In this document: positions 28,686-38,259 of the stretch, one piece after another
How positions within the stretch are numbered: position 1 is the first letter of the stretch
How the letters are laid out: each line of letters starts with the position of its first letter
From: an uncultured Actinomycetota bacterium
Lineage (GTDB): Bacteria > Actinomycetota > Actinomycetes > Streptosporangiales > Streptosporangiaceae
Assembly: GCA_963759545.1 (NCBI GenBank)
Contig: CAVXAB010000015.1
Location: 45,055-109,054, forward strand
Length of the DNA: 64,000 nt
Reading direction: 5' to 3'
The notes under the pieces: model-generated
Told to the model about the DNA's origin: nothing
The model's database searches: none
What the model saw: only the letters and a program-made list of their open reading frames with translations
Made by a program: the position numbers and the translations under genes

Positions 28686-29888
28686 CTAGGACGCGGAGGC
28701 GCTGGTCAGCCCGCCGCCGATGGCGATGACCTGGATCTTGGCGTTGCCTGAGGCCGGGTCGACGGCCGCGAACGAGAGCGTCTGGCTGGCGGAAAGCTGA
28801 ACGAGCGGGGCTGGCCGGCCAAGCGGGAGCAGCATCTGCACGTCAACGGGCACCTGGATGGGCAGGCCGGAGTGGACCGGGTTGGCCTTGTTGATCACGT
28901 CGGGGACGGCGACCGTGGTGTTCAGCGACATCGCGTAGAAGACGAGGGCGCCGCCCGCGGCGGTGCGCAGCGCGAACTGCGGAAGGCTGGACCCGTCGAG
29001 TTCCCACTGGTAGACGTCGCCGCGCGGTGCCCTCAGGCCGCCCGCGTGGTTGACGGCGCCCTGGTACATGCCGGTGGTGAGCGGGCCGTCCGCTACCGCC
29101 CTCGTGGCTGCGCTTGCCGGGCCGTCATCGACTACGCCCGCTTGGAGCGGACCGGCGTCATCGGGCTGCGCCACCAGCGACGCGTCCGACAGCGGTACGG
29201 TCGGGACAGATCCGGCGCTGCCGGCCGCCAGTCTGGGCGGCGTTACCCCGGACGGGAGCTGCGAGATGCTCGCGAGCAGCCACGGCGCTCTCGCGTCGGC
29301 CTGCTCGAACAGCATGAGCGCCGGGCCGTGCAGCGGCACCTGCGCGCCGCCGACCCCGGTGGCCGAGCTGTCAGTGCCGCGGAGCGCCCGGTTGACGGAA
29401 GCGACGAAGAAGCGCGGGTAGCCGGCCGCCGCTGGCAGGTAAAACGTGGGCGCGCCATACGTGTAGACGGCAAGGCCAGGCTGGACGCTGAGGGAGCTGC
29501 TGTAGGCGCCCTGGGCGTCCGGCGAGGTGCCGTTCACGACCACGCCGTGACTCGCCAGCGTCGCGGTCAGCACTGCCTGCTCGACGCCGGTGACCAGGGA
29601 GAGCAACGGCGATGCGAGTCGCGGCGATACCGCCTTGGCCGCGGTGGCGACATAGCGGTCGAAGACCTGGCGGGCCCGGTCCGCGGTGATGGCGGGCGAG
29701 GCGGTGCCCGGTGAGGCGGTGCCCGGCGAGGCGGTGCCCGGCGCGCCGGCCGTGGCGCTCGTGCCCGAACCCGCCGACGTGCAGGCCGCGGTGGGCAGCA
29801 CGGTGGCAAGCGCCGCTGCCAGCGCGAATGCGGGGGCGGAGCTCAGCGGGCGCCACCGCGGGCGCGCCAAGGGCTTCCGATGTGCCAC
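28686..29888 (-). CDS. Hypothetical lipoprotein
   Basis: Signal peptide with lipobox-like LPTAAC, GTASP repeats, GC3-biased codons; no family recognised. Confidence 0.7.
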
Positions 29889-29971
29889 GAATGCGGAGGA
29901 TACCTAAGTCAACCGGCCTTCGGCGCGTCCTGGATACGCTGACGGGCCCGTATTCGCGTAGGCTTTCCGAC

Positions 29972-31084
29972 ATGGCAGCTACCGATCCCGCCGATGAGAT
30001 ATCGGAACTGTCGTCCAAGCTCGACACGATCGAGGCCGTAGTCGATCCTGAGGCGATGCGCACCGAGGTCCTTGACCTGCGCGAGCAGGCCGCCGACCCG
30101 TCGCTCTGGGAGGATCAGACGCGGGCACAGCAAGTTACCCGGCGGCTGTCCTACCTTGAGGGCGAGCTGAACCGGATGGAGAGCCTCCGGCAGCGGCTCG
30201 CCGACATCAGCGTACTGTTCGAGCTTGCCAACGACGAGCACGACCAGGCCACCGCCGACGAGGCCGTCGCCGAGCTTGCCGCGGTGCGCAAGGAAGTCGA
30301 CCTCCTTGAGATCCGCACCCTGCTGAACGGCGAGTACGACGCCCGCGAGGCGCTGATCACGATCAACTCGCAGGCGGGCGGCGCCGACGCGGAGGACTTC
30401 GCGGGCAACCTGCAGCGGATGTACCTGCGCTGGGCGGAGCGGCACAAGTACCCGGCCGAGGTCTACGACGTCTCCTACGGCGAGGCGGGCATCAAGTCCA
30501 CCACGTTCGCGGTGAAGGCCCCCTACGCCTACGGCACGCTCCGCGGCGAGCAGGGCACCCACCGCATGGTGCGCATCTCCAAGTACGACAACCAGGGCCG
30601 CCGCCAGACGAGCTTCGCCGGCGTCGACGTGGTGCCCGTGGTCGAGCAGACCGACCACGTGGACATCCCCGACGACGACATCCGCGTGGACGTGTTCCGC
30701 TCCTCTGGTCCCGGCGGCCAGGGCGTCAACACGACCGACTCGGCGGTGCGGATCACCCACAAGCCGACCGGCATCGTGGTCTCCTGCCAGAACGAGCGGT
30801 CCCAGATCCAGAACAAGGCCTCCGCGATGGCCGTCCTGCAGGCCAAGCTGCTTGAGCGCCGCCGCGAGGAGGAAGCGCAGGAGCTGAACGCGCTGCGGGG
30901 CGACGGCGGCCGCGCCTGGGGATCGCAGATCCGCAACTACGTCCTGTACCCGTACCAGATGGTGAAGGACCAGCGGACGGGCTACGAGACCTCGCAGGCG
31001 GAGTCGGTGCTCGACGGCGCGATCGACGACTTCATCGAGGCGGAGATCCGCTGGCTGCGCCGCGAGGAGAAGGAATCCGACTAG
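29972..31084 (+). CDS. prfB: Peptide chain release factor 2 (continuous ORF, no programmed frameshift)
   Basis: [43 protein letters not shown]. Confidence 0.96.
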
Positions 31085-31695: not shown

Positions 31696-32385
31696 GTGAT
31701 CGAGTTTCAAAACGTCACCAAGATCTACCCGAACCAGAATCGGGCCGCCCTGGAGAACGTCGACATGACGATCAACAAGGGAGAGTTCGTCTTCCTCGTT
31801 GGCCCGTCTGGGTCGGGCAAGTCCTCCTTCCTGCGGCTGATTCTCCGTGAGGAGCGGCCGAACGAAGGCCAGATCCTCGTCGCCGGCAACGACCTGGCGA
31901 GACTCACGAACTGGAAGGTCCCGGCGCTCCGCCGCAAGATCGGCTGCGTGTTCCAGGACTTCCGGCTGCTGCCGAACAAGACCGTCGAGCAGAACGTCGC
32001 GTTCGCGCTTGAGGTGATCGGCAAGCCGCGGCGGTTCATCAAGCGCGTGGTGCCCGAGGTGCTCGACCTCGTGGGCCTGGAGGGCAAGCACGACCGCATG
32101 CCCGACGAGCTGTCCGGCGGCGAGCAGCAGCGGGTCGCGATGGCCCGGGCGTTCGTCAACCGGCCGATGATCCTGCTCGCCGACGAGCCGACGGGGAACA
32201 TCGACCCGGCGACCTCGATCGGCATCATGAAGGTCCTCGACCGCATCAACCGGACGGGGACGACGGTCGTCATGGCGACCCACGACGCCGCGATCGTGGA
32301 CTCGATGCGCAAGCGCGTGATCGAGCTTGAATACGGCAAGGTGGTCCGCGACCAGAATCGCGGTGTCTACGGCCAGAACTACTAG
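31696..32385 (+). CDS. ftsE: Cell-division ABC ATPase FtsE
   Basis: [41 protein letters not shown]. Confidence 0.96.
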
Positions 32386-32477: not shown

Positions 32478-33383
32478 ATGCGTTCAAACTTCGTGTGGCA
32501 GGAGATCTGGGTCGGGCTGCGCCGTAACCTCACCATGACCGTCGCGCTCATCGTCGTGGTGGCGATCAGCTTGTCACTGCTCGGCACGGGGCTTCTCTTC
32601 GTCAAGCAGGTCAACAGCACGCGCACGTACTGGCAGAGCAAGGTGGAGATCTCGGTCTACCTCTGCTACGCGGACAGCGCGAACCCGAACTGCCACGGTC
32701 CGGTGACCCAGGCGCAGACGACGGCGCTTGAGCAGCGGCTGCAGTCCATGTCTCAGGTCCAGACCGTCACCTACGTGTCGCAGGCGCAGGCCTGGGCCCT
32801 GTACAAGCAGGCGTTCGCCAACGACCAGTCGTACGTCTCGACGCTCAAGGAGACGGACATGCCGCCGTCGCTTGAGGTCAAGCTGAACAACCCGTCGGCC
32901 AGCTACAACATCGTGGCCAGCGCGGTCACCGGCGCCCAGGGCGTGGACTCTGTCATCGACGAGATGAACATCCTGGACAAGTTCTACCATCTGCTCGGCG
33001 GCCTGCGGAACGCGGTCGTCATCGTGGCGCTGATCCTGGTGGTCGCAGCCATCTTGCTGGTGGCCAATACCATCCGGCTGTCCGCGTTCAACCGGCGGCG
33101 GGAGACGGGCATCATGCGGCTGGTCGGCGCGTCGAACTTCTACATCCAGCTGCCGTTCCTGCTCGAGGGCGTGATCGCCGGGCTGCTCGGCTGGGTGCTC
33201 GCGGCGGCACTGCTCGTCGGGGTGAAGTCGTTCCTGCTCAACAGCCTGCAGCAGTACTTCAACTACAACGTCGGCCTGTCGACGGCAGACCTGATCGAGG
33301 TCATCGTGCTCGCGATGGTCGTCGGAGTGGCGCTCTGTGGCGTAACGTCGTTCGTGACGCTCCGCCGTTACCTGCGCGTTTAG
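32478..33383 (+). CDS. ftsX: Cell-division permease FtsX
   Basis: GLRRNLTMT, RRETGIMRLVGASNFYIQLPFLLEG. Confidence 0.95.
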   Translation: MRSNFVWQEIWVGLRRNLTMTVALIVVVAISLSLLGTGLLFVKQVNSTRTYWQSKVEISVYLCYADSANPNCHGPVTQAQTTALEQRLQSMSQVQTVTYVSQAQAWALYKQAFANDQSYVSTLKETDMPPSLEVKLNNPSASYNIVASAVTGAQGVDSVIDEMNILDKFYHLLGGLRNAVVIVALILVVAAILLVANTIRLSAFNRRRETGIMRLVGASNFYIQLPFLLEGVIAGLLGWVLAAALLVGVKSFLLNSLQQYFNYNVGLSTADLIEVIVLAMVVGVALCGVTSFVTLRRYLRV

Positions 33384-33446
33384 CCTTCGTCGGCTGGGGA
33401 GGTGCCCAGTCGACAGCTTGGCGCGGGAAGGGCCGACAGGAGAAAA

Positions 33447-33911
33447 GTGGCACGCGAGCAGGGAAACAAGGTCATCGCCTCGAACCGGCGGGCCCGGCAC
33501 GACTACGCGATCGAGGACACCTTCGAGGCGGGTATCGCGCTCACCGGTACCGAGGTGAAATCGCTGCGCGCGGGCCGTGCTTCGCTTGCCGATGGGTTCG
33601 CACTGGTCTCTGACGGGGAAGTCTGGCTGCATAACGTTCACATCCCGGAGTACACCCAGGGAACGTGGACGAACCATATGCCCAGACGGACCAGGAAGCT
33701 GTTGCTGCACCGGGGGGAGATCGAGCGGCTGGTCCGGAAGCAATCGGAACAGGGCCTAACGCTGATCCCGCTGTCGCTTTATTTCAAAGACGGCAAAGTC
33801 AAGGTGGAGCTCGCACTTGCCCGCGGTAAACGGACATACGATAAGAGACAAGACCTGGCCAAGCGGGACGCGGCCAGGGAAGTTGAGCGTGCCATGCGGC
33901 GACGACGGTGA
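33447..33911 (+). CDS. smpB: SsrA-binding protein
   Basis: [39 protein letters not shown] start follows AGGAG. Confidence 0.96.
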
Positions 33912-33926
33912 CTCCGGAGGCGGACG

Positions 33927-36239
33927 GTGACTGCGCGCTCTCGTGAGCGGGGAAGCCACGCCGGCCGACCCCGCAATTACGGCTTGCCGTTCGCCGTTCC
34001 CGGGCTGTCCGGGCGCGGGACGCCGGGATCCTTTCTGAACGGCCGGCGATCGGCATCCGCTCCCGGCACGGCTCAGGCTCCCGCTTCGGCCGAGCTGTCG
34101 GGACCGGCGGGGACCCAGGAACCTGGCGCTGCGGGCCCGTGGCCGCCCGGTCCTGGTCCTGGTCCTGGTTTCGGTCCAGGCAACGTCCTGCCGCACCCGG
34201 CCGACGCGCCCGCGCAGCACCCGGGCGGCGCGCCCGCGCAGCACCCGGGCGGCGTTCCCCGCCAGAACGGTGCCCCGTATCCGGGCGGTGGCGTTCGCCC
34301 GGGGGGCCCGCAGCGTTCCGGCGGGGCGGGGCGCGGGCACGGCAGCCGGCACCGCAAGCCCGCGGAGCGGCGGTCCCTGCCATCCAAGAAGCAGCGGCTG
34401 GCGCTCGCGCTCGTGGTCGTCGCCGGCTTGCTCGGCTTTGGCTTCGCTGACGGCTTCGGCGGCGAAGGGTCACCGACCCCGACGGTCGCGAGCTTCTTGC
34501 TCGACTGGCAGACGGGCCATTACGCGGCGGCGGCCGCCCTCACCAACGGTGCCACCACGCAGGTGAGCGCGCAGCTCGCGGCCGCTTACACCGACCTCAA
34601 CGCGAGCAACTCGTTCCTCTCCATGGCGGGCGTCGAGCAGCACGGCGACACCGCGGTGGCCACCTTCAAGGCCACGGTGGACCTGGCGCAGGCGGGACAG
34701 CAGTGGTCTTACACCGGCCACTTCGGGCTGACCTCGAAGAACGGCCAGTGGGTCGTCGACTGGGCGCCAAACCTCATCAACCCGCGGCTCGGCGCGGGTG
34801 ACCGGCTTGCCGTGGTGTCGACGTACGCGCCGCGAGCCGGCGTGCTTGACATGGACGGCCGGCCGCTTGTGGACCTCTCGGCGGACTACCGGATCGGCGT
34901 CTATCCGGGCAAGCTGAAGCACCCGGCCGCGACGGCGGCGAAGTTCAGCCAGGTCACCGGGCTGGACGAGCAGCAGGTGCTCGGGCAGATCGAGTCCGCG
35001 CCGCCAAGCGACTTCCTCCCGCTGCTCACGCTTGACGCGGACGGCTACGGGTCGCTGTGGCCGAAGCTCGCCAAGGTCCCCGGCATGACCTACCAGCAGC
35101 AGAAGCAGCGACTGTTCGACTCCTCCGCCCAGGAGGTGGTCGGCCAGGTCGGCACGGAGAACTCAAGCGTGCTGCGCGAGGAAGGCGCGGCGTACCAGCC
35201 GGGCATGACCGTGGGGTTGACCGGTTTCGAGCAGGCCTTCCAGACCGAGCTGCTCGGCGTGCCGACGACCTCGGTCGTGGTGGTGAACGCGGCCGGGCAC
35301 AGCGTGGCGACGCTCTGGAGTTCGTCGGGCGGCCGCGCCGGGACGCCGGTGCAGACCACGCTGAACACCCAGCAGCAGTCCGCCGCCGTGAACGCGCTCG
35401 AAGGCGCGGGCAACTCGGCGGAGATCGTCGCCCTCGACTGGAGCAGCGGGCAGATCCGCGTCCTCGCGTCGCATGAGGCGGGCAACGTGGCGCTGCCGGC
35501 CGGCGGGGCGCTCAACGCCAAGGTCGAGCCGGGCATGGCCTTCAGCATCGTGTCCGCGGCGGCGCTGCTGTCCAGCGGCGTCGAGGCGAACCACCCGCTG
35601 CCGTGCGAGCCGGTGGCCGACGTCGGCGGCGTGACGTTCACCTACACGCCCGCCACGACGAGCAGCGCGACGCTCGCCTCTGACTTCGCCGACGGCTGCG
35701 GCACCGCGTTCGCGAACATGTCGCGGACCCTGACTCCGCAGCAGCTCGCCAGCGCGGAACGGGGCTTCGGCATCGGCGCGTCCTGGCAGCTGCGGCTGCC
35801 GGCGTTCTCCGGCTCGGCCCCGACGGTGTCCGGCGAGGCGAATGTGGCCGCGCAGGCGACCGGCACCGGCGGCGTGCTGATGAGCCCGCTCGGCATGGCG
35901 ACCGTGGCGGCCGAGGTCGCGGCGGGCGCCGGGCGCTCTCCCGTGCTCCTGCCGACCGACACGCCCGCCACCTGGCAGGCGCCGCTGGCCGGGACGCAGC
36001 TCGATGAGTTGCGGCAGCTGATGCGACTTGCCGTCACGAAGGGATCGGCGCAGGCGGCGAACCTCCCTGGCACCCCGGTGTACGGTCAGGCCGGCGTGGT
36101 CCCGTCGGGGAAGCACTCGTACCTGAGCTGGTTCGTCGGGTACCGGGGCAGCCTGGCCGTCGCCGTGCTCGAGACGGGCAGCACTGCCTCGCAGGCGGCC
36201 GCGGCCCTGGCCGGGAGCTTCCTCAAGGCCGCCGGCTGA
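33927..36239 (+). CDS. Class B PBP-like protein (NTF2-like plus transpeptidase fold) with all catalytic motifs degenerate
   Basis: Pro/Gly-rich N-terminus, TM, APRAGVLDMDG, SPLGMA and SWFVGYRG scaffold motifs. PGMAFS replaces PGSTFK, DGCGT replaces xSCNT, GQAG replaces xKTG. Confidence 0.82.
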   Translation: MTARSRERGSHAGRPRNYGLPFAVPGLSGRGTPGSFLNGRRSASAPGTAQAPASAELSGPAGTQEPGAAGPWPPGPGPGPGFGPGNVLPHPADAPAQHPGGAPAQHPGGVPRQNGAPYPGGGVRPGGPQRSGGAGRGHGSRHRKPAERRSLPSKKQRLALALVVVAGLLGFGFADGFGGEGSPTPTVASFLLDWQTGHYAAAAALTNGATTQVSAQLAAAYTDLNASNSFLSMAGVEQHGDTAVATFKATVDLAQAGQQWSYTGHFGLTSKNGQWVVDWAPNLINPRLGAGDRLAVVSTYAPRAGVLDMDGRPLVDLSADYRIGVYPGKLKHPAATAAKFSQVTGLDEQQVLGQIESAPPSDFLPLLTLDADGYGSLWPKLAKVPGMTYQQQKQRLFDSSAQEVVGQVGTENSSVLREEGAAYQPGMTVGLTGFEQAFQTELLGVPTTSVVVVNAAGHSVATLWSSSGGRAGTPVQTTLNTQQQSAAVNALEGAGNSAEIVALDWSSGQIRVLASHEAGNVALPAGGALNAKVEPGMAFSIVSAAALLSSGVEANHPLPCEPVADVGGVTFTYTPATTSSATLASDFADGCGTAFANMSRTLTPQQLASAERGFGIGASWQLRLPAFSGSAPTVSGEANVAAQATGTGGVLMSPLGMATVAAEVAAGAGRSPVLLPTDTPATWQAPLAGTQLDELRQLMRLAVTKGSAQAANLPGTPVYGQAGVVPSGKHSYLSWFVGYRGSLAVAVLETGSTASQAAAALAGSFLKAAG

Positions 36240-36422: not shown

Positions 36423-36575
36423 GTGACGACCCAGCTGATCATTATCGGCAGGCGCGTCGGCGAGCTACTCATGGCCTTGGCAGATTTAGCAAAGGCTCGT
36501 AGCGTGCCCGGGGGACGACCCCGGACCCCCGATGCCGGGCTTCGCCCGGCAGGATGGTGCCAGGGCAGGTGCTGA
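36423..36575 (+). CDS. Putative attenuator leader peptide MTTQLIIIGRRVG... (leaderless GTG)
   Basis: CACACT -10 box 7 nt upstream; L-I-I-I run; resembles the actinobacterial ilvB-type leader pattern (...ILVLGKRVG). Confidence 0.65.
   Translation: MTTQLIIIGRRVGELLMALADLAKARSVPGGRPRTPDAGLRPAGWCQGRC
36507..36551 (+). repeat. F1 REP plus TTCG hairpin inside the cimA leader
   Basis: CCCGGGGGACGACCCCGGACCCCCGA TGCCGGGC-TTCG-CCCGGCA. Confidence 0.75.
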
Positions 36576-36580
36576 CGCGC

Positions 36581-36615
36581 AGACCTCTCGCGTTCCGCGA
36601 GGGGTCTTTTTGTTT
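36581..36615 (+). terminator. Intrinsic terminator of the cimA attenuator
   Basis: AGACCTCTCGCG-TTC-CGCGAGGGGTCT followed by TTTTGTTT, upstream of the cimA start. Confidence 0.85.
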
Positions 36616-36669
36616 GCTCTGAAACGCGACGGCCGCCACCAACACGACACGGAAGAAACGGAAGCGACG

Positions 36670-38259
36670 ATGCTCGACGACCAGTTCCACGTCTACGACA
36701 CCACCTTGCGCGACGGCGCGCAGCAGGAGGGCCTGAACCTCACGGTTGCCGACAAGCTGGTGATCGCGAGGCACCTGGACCGGCTCGGCGTCGGCTTCAT
36801 TGAGGGCGGCTGGCCGGGGGCGATTCCGAAGGACACCGAGTTCTTCCGCCGCGCGCAGACCGAGCTTGACCTGCGGCACGCGACGCTGGCGGCGTTCGGC
36901 TCGACGCGTAAGGCGGGTGTTGCCGCCGCCGATGACGCCCAGGTGGCCGCCCTGCGCGAGTCACGCGCCCCCGTCGTCACGCTGGTCGCCAAGAGCCACG
37001 ACCGTCACGTGGAGCTGGCCCTGCGGACCACGCTCGACGAGAACCTCGCGATGATCGCGGACACCGTGCGGCACCTGACCGAAGAGGGCCAGCGGGTCTT
37101 CCTCGACGCCGAGCACTTCTTCGACGGCTACAAGGCCAATCCCGCGTACGCGCTTGAGTGCGTCCGCGCCGCCGCCGAGGCGGGAGCGTCCGTGATCGCG
37201 CTGTGCGACACCAACGGCGGCATGATGCCGACCGAGCTTGGCGACATCGTCCACGCGGTCGTGTCGGGGACCGCGGCGCGCGTCGGCATCCACTGCCACG
37301 ACGACACCGGCTGCGGCGTCGCGAACACCCTGGTCGCCGTCGAGGCGGGCGCCACCCACGTGCAAGGCACCGCCAACGGCTACGGCGAGCGCGCAGGCAA
37401 CGCGAACCTGTTCAGCGTGGTCGCCGGGCTGCAGCTGAAGAAGGGCAAGGTCGTACTCGACGGCGCGGGCATCACGGAGATGACGCGGATCGCGCACGCG
37501 ATCAGCGAGGTCACCAACGTCACGCCGGACAGCCACCAGCCGTACGTCGGCCTGTCTGCCTTCGCGCACAAGGCCGGGCTGCACGCCTCGGCGATCAGGG
37601 TCGACCCGATGCTCTACCAGCACATCGACCCCGAGCTGGTCGGCAACGACATGCGGATGCTCGTCTCCGACATGGCTGGCCGCGCCTCCGTGGAGCTCAA
37701 GGGCCGCGAGCTCGGCTTCGACCTGTCCGGCGACAAGGAGGTCATCGGCCGGGTCACCGACAAGGTCAAGTCGCTTGAGGCCACGGGGTACTCCTTCGAG
37801 GCGGCCGACGCGAGCTTCGAGCTGCTGCTGCGCGACGAGCTCGCGGGGGAGCGCAGGCGGCACTTCACCGTGGAGTCCTGGCGGGTGATCGTGGAGCAGC
37901 GCGAGGACGGCGTCGTCACCAGCGAGGCCACCGTGCGCCTTGAGGCCAAGGGCGAGCGCGTCGTCGCGGTCGGCGAGGGCAACGGCCCGGTGAACGCGCT
38001 CGACCGCGCCCTGCGCGCCGCGCTTGAGCAGACCTTCCCCGAGCTCGCCACCCTGGAGCTGACCGACTACAAGGTCCGCATCCTCGAAGGCTCGGCGGGC
38101 ACCGGCGCGATCACCCGGGTGCTCATCGAGTCGAGCAACGCCGACGGCGACACCTGGTCGACGGTCGGCGTGGACGAGAACGTGATCTCCGCCTCCTGGC
38201 ACGCCCTGGAAGAGGCGGTCACCTACGGCCTGCTGCGCGCGGGCCGCATCCCCGAATAA
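36670..38259 (+). CDS. cimA: Citramalate synthase
   Basis: YDTTLRDGAQQEG, FIEGGWPG, FLDAEHFFDG, LCDTNGG, HCHDD, GYGERAGN, AHKAGLH, regulatory GNGPVNALD. Confidence 0.93.
   Translation: MLDDQFHVYDTTLRDGAQQEGLNLTVADKLVIARHLDRLGVGFIEGGWPGAIPKDTEFFRRAQTELDLRHATLAAFGSTRKAGVAAADDAQVAALRESRAPVVTLVAKSHDRHVELALRTTLDENLAMIADTVRHLTEEGQRVFLDAEHFFDGYKANPAYALECVRAAAEAGASVIALCDTNGGMMPTELGDIVHAVVSGTAARVGIHCHDDTGCGVANTLVAVEAGATHVQGTANGYGERAGNANLFSVVAGLQLKKGKVVLDGAGITEMTRIAHAISEVTNVTPDSHQPYVGLSAFAHKAGLHASAIRVDPMLYQHIDPELVGNDMRMLVSDMAGRASVELKGRELGFDLSGDKEVIGRVTDKVKSLEATGYSFEAADASFELLLRDELAGERRRHFTVESWRVIVEQREDGVVTSEATVRLEAKGERVVAVGEGNGPVNALDRALRAALEQTFPELATLELTDYKVRILEGSAGTGAITRVLIESSNADGDTWSTVGVDENVISASWHALEEAVTYGLLRAGRIPE

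Follow-up and report, generated by a model that had tools for sequence, protein, structure and literature searches.

Background

Class B penicillin-binding proteins (bPBPs) are classic beta-lactam targets. The closest described systems to the protein analyzed here are the bPBPs with an NTF2-like MecA_N domain, which include S. aureus PBP2a (MecA), E. faecium PBP5, B. subtilis PBP3 (PbpC), and M. abscessus PBP-lipo, and which share its architecture of anchor, NTF2 domain, pedestal, and transpeptidase domain. These four are accessory bPBPs whose genes do not lie beside a SEDS gene. SxxK, SxN, and KTG are present in all of them, and beta-lactams acylate them, even if slowly, whereas our protein is without all five catalytic residues. 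Among other cell-wall pseudoenzymes, the degenerate LytM factors EnvC and NlpD are controlled by FtsEX. They are alike in concept, by analogy, in that a wall-enzyme fold minus its catalysis has turned regulator and is encoded or acts with FtsEX, but their fold is unrelated to that of the protein described here. In B. subtilis PBP2B, the protein is essential and its catalysis dispensable, as seen in the S309A variant, which shows that the bPBP body is needed and its transpeptidase activity is not (Sassine et al. 2017, PMC5656894). That variant, however, is a laboratory mutant of a canonical divisome bPBP and needs PBP3 for cross-linking, while the loss described here is natural, ancient, complete, and found in an accessory bPBP.

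The gene was found in a stretch of 64,000 nucleotides (the window) from the genome of an uncultured Trebonia bacterium of the Streptosporangiaceae. It belongs to a clade of proteins without catalytic residues, which we call dead. A published description of this clade was not found in the literature searched, with most subscription journals outside its reach, and an earlier mention is possible.

Gene, locus, and predicted structure

The gene is an uninterrupted open reading frame of 770 codons (770 aa), and its GTG start lies 15 nt past the smpB stop (Table 1). In most of ~90 related loci, the first in-frame start is likewise found at 15, 14, 12, or -4 nt from the smpB stop. Upstream are prfB, ftsE, ftsX, and smpB, with ftsE-ftsX-smpB co-oriented with the PBP gene, and the gap between smpB and the PBP gene contains no terminator-like site. 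The order ftsX-smpB-PBP is conserved in every related locus with sufficient flank; in some relatives, a gene for an S41 peptidase lies between ftsX and smpB. The order smpB-PBP-ssrA was found in nine of the ten dead loci tested, and the PBP gene sits between smpB and ssrA in most relatives. In this Trebonia genome, ssrA is on another contig.

Table 1. Positions of the dead bPBP gene, its parts, and its neighbors, numbered from the first nucleotide of the window.
Feature	Position	Strand	Basis
ftsE	31696-32385	+	Pfam
ftsX	32478-33383	+	Pfam
smpB	33402-33911	+	Pfam
Shine-Dalgarno sequence GGAGG	33916-33920	+	6 nt 5' of the GTG start
Dead class B PBP, entire gene	33927-36239	+	Open frame, Pfam, AF2, Foldseek
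Gly/Pro/Arg-rich low-complexity cytoplasmic tail, hypervariable in length (residues 1-157)	33927-34397	+	Composition, charge
In-frame microsatellite-like repeats in the tail: GGTCCT x3.5; 24-nt unit x2.6 encoding APAQHPGG	34146-34254	+	Tandem Repeats Finder
Single transmembrane anchor (~residues 158-177), preceded by RHRK..RR..KKQR	34398-34457	+	Kyte-Doolittle maximum at 158
MecA_N, NTF2-like (residues 182-291)	34470-34799	+	PF05223, E 4.9e-11, 43.4 bits vs cut-off 22
Pedestal/PBP dimerization domain (residues 299-461)	34821-35309	+	PF03717, E 2e-14, 54.9 bits vs cut-off 24.4
Transpeptidase-fold domain without catalytic residues (residues 500-748)	35424-36170	+	PF00905, E 3.2e-17, 63.1 bits vs cut-off 22.1
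Motif 1 remnant PGMAFS replacing PGSTFK (nucleophile Ser to Met, Lys to Ser)	35529-35546	+	Alignments
Motif 2 remnant GCG replacing SCN	35694-35702	+	Alignments
Motif 3 remnant QAG replacing KTG	36087-36095	+	Alignments

The MecA_N, PBP_dimer, and Transpeptidase domains all score over the curated Pfam cut-offs. The protein thus has both the pedestal and the transpeptidase fold of class B PBPs, and one hydrophobic helix preceded by a +15 tail supplies the N-terminal anchor with an extracellular body. As in NTF2-type accessory bPBPs, PF05223 precedes the pedestal and the fold match is full-length. NCBIfam matches point to these families as well, but at scores well short of the equivalog cut-offs for PBP4(5) (75.4 vs 700 bits) and PBP2a (27.8 vs 750 bits). 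The AF2 model has a pLDDT of 92.6 and a pTM of 0.87 and shows order from residue 20 onward in the trimmed sequence. Its top Foldseek matches are PBP2a, PBP5fm, and B. subtilis PBP3, the best being MRSA PBP2a over the full length (E ~1e-34, TM 0.72), with a probability of 1.00 to both PBP2a and PBP5.

The cytoplasmic tail is 23% Gly, 18% Pro, and 11% Arg over residues 1-150, with a net charge of +15 over residues 1-158. Codons 20 to 163 of the PBP frame contain no in-frame start. Among relatives, the tail varies from 37 to 229 aa, with frame and start position beside smpB retained. GC3 (0.78 in the tail, 0.94 in the PBP body, and 0.74 in smpB) is not decisive on whether the tail is coding. Since the start beside smpB is conserved and the length changes preserve the frame, we read the N-terminal tail as coding. 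Together, these analyses confirm the initial annotation in its description of an intact PBP scaffold in an unbroken 770-aa frame with a good Shine-Dalgarno sequence and a Pro/Gly-rich cytoplasmic tail, directly after ftsEX-smpB.

Loss of the catalytic motifs

The MAFFT alignments, which included up to 115 active relatives, show replacements in all three motifs. PPG-STFK has become EPG-MAFS at motif 1 (S537M, K540S), DFAxSCNTAF has become DFADGCGTAF at motif 2 (S590G, N592G), and GKTGTAE has become GQAGVV at motif 3 (K721Q, T722A). MAFS, GCG, and QAG therefore stand where class B PBPs have SxxK, SxN, and K(T/S)G, as had been read from the letters of the gene. PGSTFK, SCN, and KTG are invariant in 115/115 active relatives, and the catalytic motif columns are unambiguous because the flanking positions are conserved. 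C591 (the Cys of GCG) and C560 are invariant among dead and active relatives. A phmmer search against PDB sequences aligned just to residue 516, with the motif columns beyond its reach; these columns were settled by the multiple sequence alignment and the fold search.

The initial annotation would have been overturned by intact motifs elsewhere in the protein, or by orthologs that all keep the motifs together with relaxed selection on this copy. Scanning of the whole protein found, outside the motif 1 column, just one S..K (SFLK at 764, in the C-terminal helix), a sole S.N at residue 270, inside the NTF2 domain, and no K[ST]G, and the loss is common to the orthologs across a monophyletic clade spanning the order (see below). 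The other seven PF00905 proteins of this genome all retain SxxK, SxN, and K[TS]G, making this protein the one in eight with the loss. Judged from its sequence, the protein cannot form an acyl-enzyme, and without one, both peptidoglycan cross-linking and acylation by beta-lactams would be impossible. Covalent binding of penicillin is expected to be negative because the Ser nucleophile is absent. With the fold retained, the catalytic residues gone, and the gene under purifying selection, the protein falls within the definition of a pseudoenzyme.

Distribution and origin of the dead clade

Every Streptosporangiales locus sampled, comprising 45 loci from across the order (40 plus a further five) and ~90 Trebonia-like loci, has one dead ortholog immediately after smpB and in the same orientation. 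A locus search with a 7-sequence dead-clade alignment gave Trebonia-like loci only, and the order and class were sampled by separate genome searches. In 149 of 151 high-quality genomes searched there was one match each, and 38/38 genera were covered. Members of the dead clade by name include Trebonia kvetii, Rhizohabitans arisaemae, Allonocardiopsis opalescens, and Streptosporangium vulgare.

The dead proteins are monophyletic (SH-aLRT 100) and nested among active smpB-linked orthologs (SH-aLRT 99), and their sister is an active family, also from Streptosporangiales (SH-aLRT 94). On this tree, the loss of the catalytic residues has a single origin. The active smpB-linked orthologs, from the sister family and from other actinobacterial families (11 loci), resemble the dead protein in their ftsX-smpB-PBP position and domain set and occupy the nearest tree branches; tmRNA was located in five of these loci, and there ssrA follows the PBP gene. 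They differ from it in carrying PPGSTFK, SCNTAF, and GKTGTAE, are presumably active, and share 32-37% identity with the dead protein. Because these active orthologs hold the same position, the linkage to ftsEX predates the loss of catalysis and is an inherited gene order.

Selection on the dead gene

Using NG86, which is crude on sequences of GC3 ~0.94, dN/dS of the PBP gene, taken by domain on 182 pairs with dS of 0.1-0.6, is 0.47 overall and 0.45 in the transpeptidase domain. Bootstrapping of the dead transpeptidase domain gives values of 0.26-0.42, and the upper 95% bounds are ≤0.58. A whole-frame dN/dS of 0.6 was discarded because non-coding upstream sequence and saturated pairs had entered the estimate. 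In the same 14 genomes, the dead PBP and an active NTF2-type paralog evolve alike (dN/dS 0.45 vs 0.48; dN ratio 1.12). The neighboring genes are slower, at 0.12 for smpB, 0.29 for ftsX, and 0.18 for leuA vs 0.47 for the PBP gene, which is 2-4 times faster.

Column entropy was calculated over 67 dead-clade and 115 active sequences. The former catalytic columns of the dead clade have entropies of 1.7-3.0 bits (3.0 for the motif 1 Ser and 1.9 for the Lys). Mean column entropy in the dead clade is 1.66 bits in the NTF2 domain, 1.90 in the transpeptidase domain, and 1.97 in the pedestal, making NTF2 the most conserved domain; among active relatives it ranks last in conservation (2.54 bits).

Possible roles of the dead protein

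Altogether, we consider this protein to be a pseudo-transpeptidase, an NTF2/MecA_N bitopic bPBP that probably serves wall synthesis as a non-catalytic scaffold or regulator. The proposal made from the gene itself, of a function without catalysis instead of decay, is supported by the order-wide monophyletic loss, a dN/dS well below 1 even in the dead domain, and the confident fold. It descends from an accessory bPBP that was active and was encoded in the same ftsEX-smpB-PBP-ssrA arrangement, and all five catalytic residues were replaced once, in an ancestor of the main Streptosporangiales lineage. Every sampled descendant has retained a single copy, presumably translationally coupled to smpB. 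The protein may serve the wall-synthesis machinery as a structural or regulatory subunit via its membrane helix, NTF2 domain, and pedestal, with the transpeptidase fold perhaps retained as a rigid body. It is through these three parts that other bPBPs contact SEDS polymerases or canonical bPBPs and, at the allosteric site of PBP2a, bind peptidoglycan. Precedents for bPBP function without catalysis are B. subtilis PBP2B (see above) and FtsW, which polymerizes only with its cognate bPBP (bioRxiv 10.1101/358663). However, the accessory NTF2-type bPBPs that have been studied seem to give mainly transpeptidase activity, which counts against a scaffold role. Each of the three SEDS genes in this genome lies next to the gene for its cognate bPBP, so there is no orphan polymerase awaiting a partner, and this too counts against it, as does the faster evolution of the dead gene relative to its neighbors.

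Several other readings have to be weighed against a scaffold or regulator. The dead bPBP may partner a SEDS polymerase or a canonical bPBP without cross-linking, with strands cross-linked solely by LD-transpeptidases or class A PBPs; we regard this arrangement as unlikely. We are similarly doubtful of a peptidoglycan or muropeptide sensor, in which the NTF2-pedestal region or the dead cleft would bind fragments non-covalently and signal via the helix to the tail. In its favor, no other part of the dead-clade protein is as conserved as the NTF2 domain, and every relative has a cytoplasmic tail. In PBP2a, to which the fold corresponds, the allosteric site binds muramic acid and analogues of peptidoglycan (PDB titles 3zfz, 3zg5). 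The tail, however, is of low complexity and variable length with slippage repeats and no conserved motif seen, which makes it a poor signaling output domain. In the dead cleft, residues vary freely, so it is not a conserved ligand site, and no kinase or regulator gene lies nearby. A partner of FtsEX, coupling its ATPase cycle to septal wall remodeling in the manner of EnvC, PcsB, or RipC, would fit the co-oriented ftsE-ftsX-smpB-PBP genes, the missing terminator before the PBP gene, and the conserved gene order, and we find it slightly harder to credit. We set aside FtsEX adjacency as a sign of partnership because active orthologs occupy the same position in other families, with a linkage older than the loss. 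Moreover, it is to smpB, not ftsX, that the PBP gene is coupled, and the gene lies mostly between smpB and ssrA, and the S41 peptidase gene parts ftsX from smpB in some relatives. The FtsX partners known to us use coiled-coil domains, and neither the Pfam matches nor the AF2 model of this protein contains a coiled coil or other FtsX-docking module.

Could the protein still be an enzyme, using other residues or another chemistry in the old cleft, such as that of a non-serine hydrolase, or an activity driven by binding? Some pseudoenzymes recognized from sequence prove to have migrated catalytic residues (PMC10211241), and about two in three of the dead-clade alignment rows inspected have Ser or Thr at position 540. 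Yet no residue exceeds 50% at any of the seven former catalytic columns of the dead clade, and neither SxxK nor K[ST]G is present within the transpeptidase domain. Conservation of ≥90% in the dead clade is seen mostly at Gly, Ala, hydrophobic, and aromatic residues and the Cys pair, nearly all common to active relatives, and we consider retained catalysis very improbable. The remaining reading, a relic on its way to loss whose frame is open by chance in GC-rich DNA, could draw on the faster evolution relative to neighboring genes and on one Trebonia genome in which the copy has at least five frame changes beside intact neighbors and looks truly degraded; this copy suggests that the gene may be dispensable in some lineages. 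One further locus has a single frame change with intact neighbors. Most broken copies were rejected as evidence of decay, because neighboring genes are split too (four loci are examples), suggesting errors of assembly. In ~99 related loci and 45 order-level loci the frame is unbroken, dN/dS is clearly below 1 and equal to that of the active paralog, the start position beside smpB is conserved, and the AF2 model is highly confident. A relic is thus already contradicted, and we give it almost no credence.

Implications

Recent work suggests that the protein body of bPBPs, not catalysis alone, controls SEDS glycan polymerases, and the dead clade is a natural experiment on this point. It offers a dead bPBP in single copy, at a fixed locus, across an order of soil actinomycetes with cultured genera. 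Active orthologs at the same locus in sister lineages allow a clean comparison of active and dead proteins for non-catalytic bPBP function. Genome annotation labels the protein "FtsI / penicillin-binding protein 2", although penicillin binding is not expected from its residues. If the dead protein does partner a SEDS polymerase or canonical bPBP, it would represent a natural, order-wide uncoupling of the bPBP activator from transpeptidase function, one that would be intrinsically blind to beta-lactams.

Motif loss on an intact PBP scaffold

The gene directly downstream of prfB, ftsE, ftsX and smpB encodes a penicillin-binding protein of class B (bPBP) lacking the catalytic motifs SxxK, SxN and KTG; we refer to such proteins as dead and to relatives that keep the motifs as active. 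As the initial annotation had stated, the 770-codon frame is uninterrupted and has a good Shine-Dalgarno sequence. GGAGG is placed 6 nt ahead of a GTG start that sits 15 nt past the smpB stop. The smpB-PBP interval contains no terminator-like site. Genes for a LeuA/CimA-type synthase and for an MFS transporter follow downstream. Within the first part of the LeuA/CimA-type ORF is a strong terminator-like hairpin carrying a T-tract; it fits a leader or attenuator and was rejected as the terminator of the PBP gene, whose 3' end is 340 nt upstream.

Features of the dead PBP, its gene and the neighbouring genes (window positions in nt; domains in residues of the dead PBP)
Feature	Position	Strand	Details
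prfB open frame	29711-31084		457 aa; PCRF domain begins only at residue 117
smpB	33402-33911		third-position GC merely 0.74 vs 0.93-0.94 in neighbouring genes
Dead class B PBP ORF	33927-36239	+	770 codons open
LeuA/CimA-type ORF	36532-38259		ORF downstream of dead PBP gene
Hairpin and T-tract	36581-36607		just within start of LeuA/CimA-type ORF
MecA_N (NTF2-like)	residues 182-291		Pfam, above curated cut-off
PBP_dimer (pedestal)	residues 299-461		Pfam, above curated cut-off
Transpeptidase	residues 500-748		Pfam, above curated cut-off

The NCBIfam PBP2, PBP4(5) and PBP2a models match the protein at no more than a tenth of their equivalog cut-offs. Its AlphaFold2 model is confident (pLDDT 92.6, pTM 0.87, 148-row alignment), and in Foldseek its entire chain matches MRSA PBP2a (E 3e-34, TM 0.72), E. 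faecium PBP5 and B. subtilis PBP3. Searching 1.84 billion cluster representatives yielded 488 relatives at E <= 1e-30. When the full-length relatives were aligned with MAFFT, canonical members had PPGSTFK, SCNTAF and GKTGTAE where the dead PBP has EPGMAFS, GCGTAF and GQAGVV; conserved flanks fix the register. Together, the model, the whole-chain matches and the motif columns indicate an intact scaffold that has lost its catalytic set. The reported loss of all three motifs was borne out by a subsequent alignment, with 67 dead and 115 active sequences: S, K, S, N, K and G are 100% invariant in the active set (T, 97%), and in the dead set the top residue reaches at most 50% at every former catalytic column (entropy 1.7-3.0 bits). 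The transpeptidase domain has no other SxxK or K[ST]G, and the motif columns show a protein predicted to be incapable of acyl-enzyme chemistry. All motifs are preserved in the genome's other seven PF00905 proteins. Across the dead and active sets alike, C560 and C591 are invariant; they probably form a disulfide.

Distribution and ancestral locus

PGMAFS, GCG and QAG are retained, with minor variants, by each of the 120 closest proteins (71-97% identity), whose labels are Trebonia or unnamed soil metagenome. Within the GTDB genus, one ortholog is present in 24/24 genomes (50-86% identity; 20 full-length), and the order ftsX-smpB-PBP holds wherever the flank is long enough among 80 named loci, which come from Trebonia or "Streptosporangiaceae"-labelled MAGs and the isolate Trebonia kvetii 15TR583. 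Across the GTDB order (Streptosporangiales), 149 of 151 high-quality genomes, covering 38/38 genera, have one match at E <= 1e-55. All 40 order-level loci retrieved (at least 34 genera) carry the gene on the same strand, directly 3' of smpB and without catalytic residues, as do deep-branching representatives. Named members include Rhizohabitans arisaemae, Allonocardiopsis opalescens and Streptosporangium vulgare.

A catalytically intact protein occupies the same post-smpB position in another family of the order (f4), in the class-level families f36, f8, f17 and f50, and on one metagenome contig. In a 52-sequence tree (IQ-TREE, LG+C20 PMSF, quick search), the dead proteins are monophyletic (SH-aLRT 100) and sister to the active f4 group (support 94), and both fall within a clade (support 99) containing all smpB-linked active orthologs. 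FastTree with 125 representatives agrees; it also places separate, smaller motif losses in another NTF2-type bPBP branch, outside the Streptosporangiales clade (proteins P0197, from a Nitriliruptorales MAG, P0243 and P0247). The tmRNA gene ssrA follows the PBP gene in 9/10 dead and 5/10 active-linked loci tested; thus, the ancestral layout is ftsE-ftsX-smpB-PBP-ssrA. In the window's own genome, ssrA is on another contig (C22:126528-126918) and the LeuA/CimA-type gene follows instead. A PDZ/S41 (Ctp-type) peptidase gene lies between ftsX and smpB at some loci (L111, L112, L113; 4/42 dead order-level loci). The window has none there; in Trebonia, with both of its S41 genes elsewhere, the locus lacks it.

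Cytoplasmic tail

The Pro/Gly-rich cytoplasmic tail described initially is evident in residues 1-150 (23% Gly, 18% Pro, 11% Arg), with a net charge of +15 over residues 1-158 followed by one hydrophobic helix (~158-177). Codons 20-163 include no in-frame start codon. In most of ~90 related loci, the frame's first start codon lies 15, 14 or 12 nt past the smpB stop or shows a 4-nt overlap with it, while tail length ranges from 37 to 229 residues, the changes being accounted for by in-frame microsatellite-like repeats. These sequence features predict that the hypervariable tail is translated, and the conserved start position predicts translational coupling of the gene to smpB. Two active NTF2-type bPBP paralogs in the window's genome, C17:109477-111906 (-) and C22:211140-213101 (-), have ectodomains 72% identical; the former has a long Gly/Gln/Arg-rich open frame upstream, and cytoplasmic tails that are long and low in complexity may therefore be frequent among this genome's PBPs.

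Selection and constraint

Pairwise NG86 estimates (182 pairs with dS 0.1-0.6) gave a dN/dS of 0.47 over residues 182-770 (NTF2 domain, 0.42; pedestal, 0.55; transpeptidase domain, 0.45); values for smpB, ftsX and leuA were 0.12, 0.29 and 0.18. For the dead transpeptidase domain against four relatives, bootstrap 95% intervals reach at most 0.58. As the fairest control, an active paralog of the NTF2-type bPBPs from the same 14 genomes has a dN/dS of 0.48 vs 0.45 for the dead protein (dN ratio 1.12), so the dead protein is as constrained as an active accessory bPBP. These values (0.45-0.47) agree with the initial view that the gene is not decaying; it is retained and constrained. Within the dead clade, conservation is highest in the NTF2 domain (1.66 bits vs 1.90 for the transpeptidase domain), whereas active relatives show the reverse (2.54 and 1.69 bits); constraint has shifted away from the catalytic cleft and onto the NTF2 and pedestal side.

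One same-genus copy (L029, G015:C2:414540-418586) has at least five frame changes beside single-frame smpB, ftsX and leuA, and is apparently either a true pseudogene or a product of poor local assembly. Most other apparent breaks are in loci where neighbour genes are split too, a sign of assembly errors.

Possible roles

The dead PBP probably serves wall synthesis as a scaffold or regulator without catalysis of its own; the initial annotation had proposed a non-catalytic role, with a scaffold among its examples. The scaffold or regulator role is plausible because the B. subtilis PBP2B protein is essential while its enzyme activity is not (PMC5656894), and because the FtsW polymerase requires its cognate bPBP (10.1101/358663). 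All three SEDS genes in this genome already have an adjoining bPBP, which argues against a simple SEDS-partner model. The locus might suggest a partner of FtsEX, but active orthologs at the same position imply that the ftsEX-smpB linkage is older than the loss of catalysis, and we give this reading lower weight, as we do a sensor. Lower weight also goes to a cryptic enzyme, set beside the loss of all three motifs, and to a relic gene, set beside its measured constraint.

Public annotation names dead-clade proteins FtsI/PBP2 or [quoted passage not shown] Motif-dead NTF2-type bPBPs go unmentioned in a global survey of bPBPs and SEDS proteins from 2025, whose classes are domain-based (PMC12516126), and our full-text literature search found no description of the clade. 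The scaffold or regulator candidate is a natural, ancient, order-spanning pseudo-bPBP, with active orthologs from the same locus on hand for comparison.
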